Positions 19,929 through 19,956 of a stretch of 32,000 bases of DNA are shown in pieces. Location of the stretch: assembly GCA_963806635.1 (NCBI GenBank), contig CAWDZA010000023.1, positions 226,876 to 258,875 of the forward strand, in the 5' to 3' direction. The stretch is from an uncultured Chloroflexia bacterium. GTDB taxonomy: Bacteria > Chloroflexota > Anaerolineae > Anaerolineales > Anaerolineaceae. The notes below the pieces were generated by a model, which saw only the letters and a program-made list of their open reading frames with translations, searched no databases and had not been told where the DNA came from. A program made the position numbers and the translations under genes. How positions within the stretch are numbered: the stretch's first letter is position 1; each line of letters begins with the position of its first letter.

Positions 19929-19956
19929 ATTATATAGATAATCGTCTATATGTCAA
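19929..19956 (-). promoter_or_regulatory. Sigma70-type promoter with embedded ArsR-operator-like inverted repeat
   Basis: Minus strand TTGAC[ATATAGAcgattaTCTATAT]AAT: TTGACA-N16-TATAAT with a perfect 7-bp inverted repeat at 19932-19951; ATG lies 9 nt after the -10. Confidence 0.8.

Follow-up and report, generated by a model that had tools for sequence, protein, structure and literature searches.

We consider it likely that the minus-strand segment 19956–19905 is the autoregulated promoter–operator cassette of an arsR-hgcA-hgcB operon, repressed by the ArsR protein that the first gene encodes and released by a metalloid. The segment is part of a 32,000-nucleotide stretch of DNA from an uncultured Chloroflexia bacterium, here called the window, and coordinates refer to positions in that stretch.

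On the minus strand, positions 19956–19929 read catcTTGACATATAGACGATTATCTATATAATaacacatagATGggtatcgatATG, which resolves into TTGACA TATAGACGATTATCTA TATAAT, with the −35 hexamer at 19951–19956, the −10 hexamer at 19929–19934, and a 16-nt spacer between them. The original prediction of a consensus promoter at this site holds in its letters, coordinates, and spacer length, and a promoter scan assigns it a 12/12 match to the two hexamers. Of 14 promoter-like sites in 20 kb, it is the only one with a 12/12 match, and the runner-up scores 10/12; the number of sites at 9/12 or better (14 in 20 kb) compares with 11.8 ± 3.6 in shuffled sequences. The identity of the hexamers, a spacing within the range of 16–18 nt, and their conserved placement point to a sigma-70-type promoter, for which we predict a transcription start at about 19921–19923.

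The spacer is occupied by a palindrome, O1 (ATATAGA-cgatta-TCTATAT, 19932–19951, strandless), which is recovered both by a repeat finder and by motif search. Its arms (19932–19938 and 19945–19951) are 7 nt each, 100% complementary, and 6 nt apart, and O1 overlaps one nucleotide of the −35 hexamer (the last A) and three nucleotides of the −10 hexamer (TAT). The repeat finder agrees in this respect with the proposal that a perfect ATATAGA-N6-TCTATAT repeat clips both hexamers. Size alone is weak evidence, as 7-nt inverted repeats occur four times in 600 bp; the significance of O1 derives instead from a second copy, O2, and from conservation across loci. A search for ATATAGA-N6-TCTATAT with up to two mismatches, for which 0.01 matches per window are expected by chance, returns O2 at 19906–19925 (ACATAGA-tgggta-TCGATAT, two mismatches, strandless), and a copy occupies the same place in 29 loci. 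On the minus strand O2 reads ACATAGAtgggtaTCGATAT and lies 26 bp downstream of O1, centre to centre. It starts 3 nt past the −10 hexamer, extends over the predicted transcription start and the short leader, and includes the AT of the ATG at 19907. In the window it is an imperfect palindrome, with arms complementary at five of seven positions. The earlier reading was correct in placing an ArsR-family-type repeat in the spacer ahead of arsR-hgcA-hgcB, but overlooked the second copy.

The sites can be summarized in an operator consensus, A(A/T)AT(A/C)GA-N6-TC(T/G)AT(A/T)T, and each promoter has two such sites, which are presumably bound by ArsR. At a centre distance of 26 bp, two dimers would sit on roughly opposite faces of the helix, and cooperativity between them is not obvious. 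The two sites differ in the G content of their N6: positions 9 and 10 are G in 22 and 17 of 28 O2 sites, compared with 13 and 4 of 26 O1 sites. The G-rich N6 of O2 (GA-N-GG about 9 nt before the ATG) resembles a weak Shine-Dalgarno sequence, and O2 may therefore contribute a ribosome-binding site. Motif and profile searches of the window gave no operator copy directly before hgcA, and no operator or cassette match in or before the upstream ars cluster. A third match to the core, ATAGAGAATTTTCTAT at 18230–18245, was considered as an operator 3′ of hgcB and rejected; it is located in the promoter spacer of a fadR-like gene and is not conserved in the related loci L001 or L006, and a degenerate core of this kind is expected 2.2 times per window by chance.

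A 52-nt cassette recurs before ArsR homologues of 51–78% identity in dozens of metagenome and MAG loci. Scanning of a genome collection yielded one close locus, L001, from a Chloroflexi MAG with an ArsR 77% identical to that of the window, and scanning of metagenomes with the ArsR alignment yielded 80 loci. The common layout is TTGACA / O1 / TATAAT (or TAGAAT, with a 17-nt spacer) / 1–8 nt, mostly 3 / O2 / ATG, and a strict pattern finds it in 29 loci with ArsR identities of 56–78%. The original prediction had proposed to look for the same operator before hgcAB in related MAGs; the loci L001 and L006 have the cassette before arsR-hgcAB. The peptide pattern QPTVSHHL served to retrieve half of the relatives, and the invariance of the recognition helix among them therefore arises by construction and carries no weight. 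Similarly, TTGACA was demanded by the cassette search patterns and is constant in those sets by construction; when upstream regions were collected by the ArsR protein match alone, TTGACA immediately preceded O1 in most cassette loci. The −10 hexamer, matched as a loose pattern, is TATAAT or TAGAAT in 27 of 29 cassettes, and in the relatives with a 17-nt spacer it is TAGAAT, moved by one base relative to O1. The arms of O1 are near-invariant although they were not imposed by the search pattern, and the N6 is variable.

Redundancy among the metagenome loci is possible, and the 14 unique cassettes with strictly canonical spacing were used for the column statistics. The mean column information in these is 1.66 bits within the cassette and is lower outside it, at 0.29 bits over the 40 upstream nucleotides and 0.62 bits over the first 30 coding nucleotides. 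Among 67 loci where the ArsR is at least 50% identical and enough upstream sequence is present, 47 have at least one site within −80 to +5 of the start and 16 have two (up to two mismatches); the density is 63 sites in the 5.7 kb of this interval, against 60 sites in 234 kb elsewhere. An nhmmer profile built from 13 cassettes, with the window excluded, gives a full-length match at 19956–19905 (52.9 bits, E = 1.1e-15), and no other match in the 32 kb. Upstream of ArsRs below about 50% identity (L002–L005 and L070–L085) the motif is missing, and some of these have other palindromes in its place. Contigs from other samples that encode an identical ArsR (98–99% DNA identity) have the same cassette, with the sole internal change in the N6 of O1, and in the case of ArsRs that are 93% identical the arms are kept, the N6 is changed, and the DNA upstream of the −35 hexamer is unrelated. 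Such a pattern is the footprint that would be expected of a protein-binding palindrome in a functional promoter.

The position of O2 is closely linked to the question of where translation of arsR begins. The original prediction combined a single operator with a nearly leaderless mRNA whose translation would begin at the ATG at 19919. This ATG does lie 9 nt past the −10 hexamer, as was claimed; it also opens the longest ORF (107 aa in the mechanical ORF list), and gene callers chose it for the identical protein on nine contigs. However, it is not the conserved initiation codon. Homologues are mostly 103–104 aa long and begin at the residue equivalent to M5 in the window. The ATG at the position of 19907 is kept in 27 of 29 aligned cassettes, with TTG in the other two, whereas the in-frame upstream ATG occurs in only nine of the 29, as a chance product that arises where the operator reads ATAGA+TGG. 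The ATG embedded in the end of O2 is also used where a different gene follows the cassette, namely an ORF for a 107-aa Cys-rich protein in eight loci. Furthermore, a start 10 nt after the −10 hexamer would be at the far edge of the usual spacing, and the very existence of a second operator copy speaks against a single-operator arrangement, which we regard as improbable. The conserved start of arsR is most probably the ATG at 19907, 21 nt past the −10 hexamer, which gives a gene at 19596–19907 (minus strand) for a protein of 103 aa and a predicted mRNA leader of about 15 nt inside O2. A nearly leaderless mRNA is accordingly not supported by the comparison of cassettes.

The protein encoded by arsR matches PF01022 (HTH_5) with 50 bits (cut-off 22) and NF033788 with 80.1 bits (cut-off 55), as is characteristic of a winged helix-turn-helix repressor from the ArsR/SmtB family; the protein's best solved relatives are SrnR, HlyU, SmtB, CzrA, and CmtR. 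The next gene, hgcA (18576–19568, minus strand), encodes the corrinoid protein of mercury methylation (NF040863, 415 bits against a cut-off of 275), and its translation contains NVWCAAGK, in agreement with the cap-helix motif N(V/I)WCA(A/G)GK. The product of hgcB (18275–18574, minus strand) is a 2x[4Fe-4S] ferredoxin (NF040864, 105 bits against a cut-off of 99) with two CxxCxxCxxxCP motifs and a C-terminus that ends in GDCC. By these scores and motifs, HgcA and HgcB are identified as a mercury-methylation pair. The gap between arsR and hgcA is 27 nt, or 39 nt with TTG 19556 as the first codon of hgcA, and that between hgcA and hgcB is 1 nt, the hgcB start being 2 nt after the hgcA stop. No terminator-like site is present in these gaps, and their shortness together with the lack of a terminator indicates that arsR, hgcA, and hgcB form one operon. 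The start of hgcA is probably the TTG at 19556 rather than the ATG at 19568, in which case GGAGG at 19562–19566 would be its Shine-Dalgarno sequence. The N-terminus that results (MQAEFF) matches those of L001 (MQAEIM) and L006 (MQMEIT); gene callers gave hgcA as 326 aa and 330 aa on different contigs. In L001, hgcA (4381–5362) is seemingly split into overlapping ORFs at 4381–4671 and 4532–5362, which suggests a frameshift in that assembly.

Downstream of hgcB is the fadR-like gene, which has, at 18183–18255 (minus strand), its own promoter, TTGCAT-17-TATACT, followed by a palindrome resembling a FadR box, CTGGTCAGACCACTTAC ... CTGACCAGG; this arrangement of promoter and palindrome is conserved in L001 and L006. 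On the other side, the upstream ars cluster (20016–24259, minus strand) contains a second arsR, a gcvH-like gene, two DGC-domain genes, an OsmC-like gene, a Thioredoxin_3 gene, arsC, and acr3. A terminator scan found no terminator between acr3 and the arsR promoter; read-through from the ars operon is therefore possible, and part of the hgcAB transcription could come from upstream. The acr3 gene (20016–21063) is broken into two overlapping ORFs by an extra C at 20487, with five substitutions within 20 nt alongside. Three contigs from other samples, 98–99% identical, are without the extra C; in two of them the whole acr3 is called, as 348 and 361 aa, and in the third it is called from a later start, as 325 aa. 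The split in the window could reflect a pseudogene specific to the strain or else an artefact of local assembly. At 24265–24282, with the M29 peptidase gene on one side and the second arsR on the other, there is an inverted repeat, CTGCAATAAATATTGCGG, followed by TTTTCTT. It could terminate the peptidase gene or serve the second ArsR as its operator; it is unrelated to the cassette and absent from L001, which has no ars cluster.

Operators that lie in a promoter spacer or over a transcription start, and repression by occlusion, are the norm for the ArsR/SmtB family, and a mechanism along these lines can be proposed for the arsR-hgcAB cassette. RNA polymerase with the housekeeping sigma factor would use TTGACA-16-TATAAT, and dimers of ArsR, the product of the first gene, would bind the two 20-bp palindromes. 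A dimer on O1 would fill the spacer and touch both hexamers, and would thereby exclude the polymerase, while a second dimer on O2, which covers the region from the start site through the leader to the start codon, would prevent open complexes from forming or the polymerase from escaping the promoter. The cysteine pairs CC30/31 and CC84/85 would then bind a thiophilic metalloid, for which As(III) or methylarsenite is the most likely candidate, and the repressor would be freed from the DNA, a step that we rate as slightly more probable than not; upon this, arsR, hgcA, and hgcB would be transcribed together. These cysteines (C30/C31 and C84/C85 in the 107-aa numbering) are invariant in 19 homologues; CC30/31 is located at the end of helix 2 and CC84/85 at the start of the last helix. 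In a hand alignment on the SQP motif, the two pairs match none of the described type 1–4 As(III) sites, and the ligand could instead be Sb(III), Cd/Zn, a persulfide, or a redox state. A third CC pair, at the C-terminus, is limited to the clade of the window. The original prediction had hgcAB responding to metalloids or to Hg. A metalloid response can reasonably be inferred, but the Hg response is unsupported: in the one experimental system, Pseudodesulfovibrio mercurii ND132, which has an ArsR of a different subfamily, hgcA transcription was unchanged by Hg (Gionfriddo et al. 2022/2023).

The palindromes might in principle be read by a regulator other than the adjacent ArsR, such as a global factor or the second ArsR of the ars cluster, whose gene is located 4 kb upstream. 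The motif, however, travels with the adjacent-ArsR subfamily, also in loci that have neither the second ArsR nor the ars cluster (L001, L006, and many arsR-arsM loci), and it is absent upstream of more distant ArsRs. Half-site variants (ATAGA versus ATCGA/ATTGA) track residues that flank the recognition helix, a covariation that supports ArsR as the binder and argues against any other regulator, as does the lack of an operator copy before the ars cluster. Binding by a different regulator is thus rather improbable.

A function at the RNA level, as an attenuator or a hairpin that hides a ribosome-binding site, would benefit from the fact that O2 would be transcribed and has a G-rich stretch in its spacer, and read-through from acr3 would place O1 in a transcript as well. 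From its own promoter, on the other hand, O1 is upstream of the predicted transcription start. The hairpins are weak (−4.3 kcal/mol for O1, and for O2 in the window no hairpin at −1.8 kcal/mol, z = +1.4), and neither site is followed by a U-tract. Rfam has nothing at threshold, the only hit being a sub-threshold match to a miRNA (24.6 bits against 58), and it is the sequence of the arms that is conserved, not merely their pairing. The RNA-element reading was rejected on account of the weak hairpins and the Rfam scores below threshold, and appears highly improbable. Even less credible, and contradicted by the comparative data, is chance AT-rich symmetry in a strong constitutive promoter that leaves hgcAB unregulated. 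The frequency of 7-nt inverted repeats noted above would allow for it, and the early literature describes hgcAB as constitutive, but the conservation is specific to the arms across loci with 51–78% identical ArsRs, where the N6 varies and the flanks are unrelated, and second and third operator copies are found in register with genes.

The preferred reading, a cassette repressed by the adjacent ArsR, is not confined to mercury-methylation genes. The first gene after arsR in 54 loci is arsM in 31, hgcA in six, and arsP in four. The methyltransferases belong to Methyltransf_31, and all seven that were tested pass NF008823 with 274–316 bits (cut-off 263). Both kinds of cargo may follow the same arsR, as in L011 (arsR-arsM-hgcA-hgcB) and L031 (arsR-arsP-x-arsM-hgcA), and hgcA is found downstream in nine of the scanned loci. 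In a rough neighbour-joining tree, calculated without support values, ArsRs linked to hgcA are interleaved with those linked to arsM in at least four places. The cassette therefore marks an ArsR subfamily with invariant CC...CC whose usual cargo is arsM, and is not specific for hgcAB. That arsM is the common downstream gene points to arsenic as the signal.

The 60 sites found elsewhere in the scanned loci sit directly before the next gene or before the gene preceding arsR. Many fall in the spacer between arsR and arsM or hgcA, at positions +320 to +380 relative to the start of arsR; this position, O3, often comes after a terminator-like hairpin with a T-run and 5–25 nt before a Shine-Dalgarno sequence. 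O3 is directly before hgcA in L007, L022, L024, and L032, and before arsM in loci among L010–L048; other extra sites are found before arsM, after a small Cys-rich ORF. O3 may be part of a weak internal promoter or may act as a roadblock. As evidence of an internal promoter, the weak −35/−10-like elements near O3 in the relatives are unconvincing, as the spacer would be 19 nt, and this assignment was rejected. No O3 was found in the window, L001, or L006, which indicates that control of hgcAB in that clade would be exerted via the arsR promoter alone. In eight loci (L017, L019, L025, L028, L030, L034, L035, and L061), the same cassette precedes the gene for a Cys-rich protein of about 107 aa just upstream of arsR. 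The protein contains a conserved CCPF motif as well as C-(N/D)-M at its N-terminus, and its gene might be counted as a further, new component of the ars regulon.

The unit formed by arsR and hgcAB had been predicted to be separable from the upstream ars genes, and loci with the cassette but without the cluster confirm this. L001 and L006 have the order M29 peptidase - arsR - hgcA - hgcB - fadR with no ars genes in between, and L087, which is 99.4% identical to the window, has lost an ars segment of about 2.5 kb that begins with the second arsR and ends with Thioredoxin_3; all three loci retain the cassette. Because the cassette persists without the ars cluster, and the cluster has no operator of its own of this type, arsR-hgcAB can be regarded as a modular unit. 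Compared with L087, the ars cluster (about 21465–24250) is polymorphic within one species-level population, and arsR-hgcAB-fadR is constant.

The operators of the classical ArsR/SmtB systems (SmtB S1/S2 and S3/S4, CadC, CzrA with 12-2-12 repeats, and B. subtilis AseR) are AT-rich imperfect palindromes of about 20–26 bp. They overlap the core promoter of the operon that encodes the repressor, SmtB having more than one site, and repression is relieved by the ligand. The cassette in the window likewise has AT-rich palindromes over core promoter elements of its own operon. The half-sites are different, TAGA/TCTA in the window versus TGAA/TTCA in CzrA and SmtB; the AseR site of B. subtilis is TATATAACGATTTGCTTATATA. 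Unlike the classical systems, where the cargo is an efflux pump or a metallothionein, the cargo here is hgcAB or arsM, and the second site runs into the start codon.

A closer counterpart is ArArsR of the arsRMC operon in Arsenicibacter rosenii SM-1 (Zhang et al. 2025, PMC11868830), which is also an autorepressor whose gene stands first in the operon. The ArArsR footprint, TTTTATCGTAATATTGCGATCACAATC, overlaps the promoter and contains ATCG-N8-CGAT (PMC11868830), which has the core and spacing of AT(A/C)GA-N6-TC(T/G)AT here. The arsRMC operon includes arsM, the usual cargo of the subfamily in the window, and ArArsR ends in a C-terminal CC pair, as does ArsR in the window. There are also differences. 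For ArArsR, one footprinted site is reported, overlapping the −35 hexamer, whereas the window has two sites that span the spacer and the start. ArArsR senses with C41 together with C80/C82 (CxC pairs), while by hand alignment the vicinal CC pairs of the ArsR in the window are located elsewhere. The phyla are different too (Bacteroidota for ArArsR, Chloroflexota for the window), and the comparison with this "type 4" ArsR covers the operator core and the C-terminal CC.

With respect to gene context, the nearest described case is arsR2 of P. mercurii ND132, an ArsR-family gene that is likewise directly upstream of hgcAB, is co-transcribed with them, and responds to arsenic and SAH, not Hg (Gionfriddo et al. 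2022/2023). ArsR2 has a C47/C49/C86/C88 site and no adjacent ars genes, in contrast to the CC...CC of the mainly arsM-linked subfamily in the window. Genes similar to arsR are found upstream of hgcA in many methylators, and ars genes are often near, including in Chloroflexi MAGs; in lake metatranscriptomes, hgcA transcription was lower where arsR was present. Neither "promoter" nor "operator" appears in those texts on arsR-hgcAB linkage that were searched for these words, and a partly poorly targeted search of the literature returned nothing relevant on a defined promoter or operator of hgcAB.

The occurrence of arsR upstream of hgcAB, of ars and arsM as neighbours, and of arsenic-responsive transcription has thus already been published. 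New here are the operator sequence code, the two-site layout fused to the start codon, and the use of one cassette that alternately drives arsM or hgcAB. As an element, the cassette appears to be an ordinary kind of ArsR operator-promoter, and its predicted role is to tie mercury methylation to arsenic sensing. Since the cassette drives arsM, hgcAB, or both, and hgcA- and arsM-linked repressors are interleaved, one may go further and speculate that hgcAB is a true member of an arsenic-sensing and methylation regulon, with HgcAB maybe recruited repeatedly as partner or substitute of ArsM. HgcAB would then serve corrinoid-dependent methylation or detoxification of metalloids in anaerobes, with Hg methylation as a side reaction. 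We consider this extended reading unlikely.

The signals that switch on hgcAB are an open question of mercury biogeochemistry, as is the native role of HgcAB, and the abundance of genes or transcripts is a poor predictor of methylmercury production. The code described here is conserved in dozens of loci of uncultured Chloroflexota type, with two sites in each promoter and frequently a third directly before arsM or hgcA, and would allow repressor control of environmental hgcAB genes to be predicted from sequence alone. It also provides a direct basis for reporters and EMSA probes, and a way to ask if arsenic, not mercury, gates the capacity for mercury methylation in these organisms. That either arsM or hgcAB can stand behind one switch gives sharper form to the hypothesis of a link between the two methylation systems.
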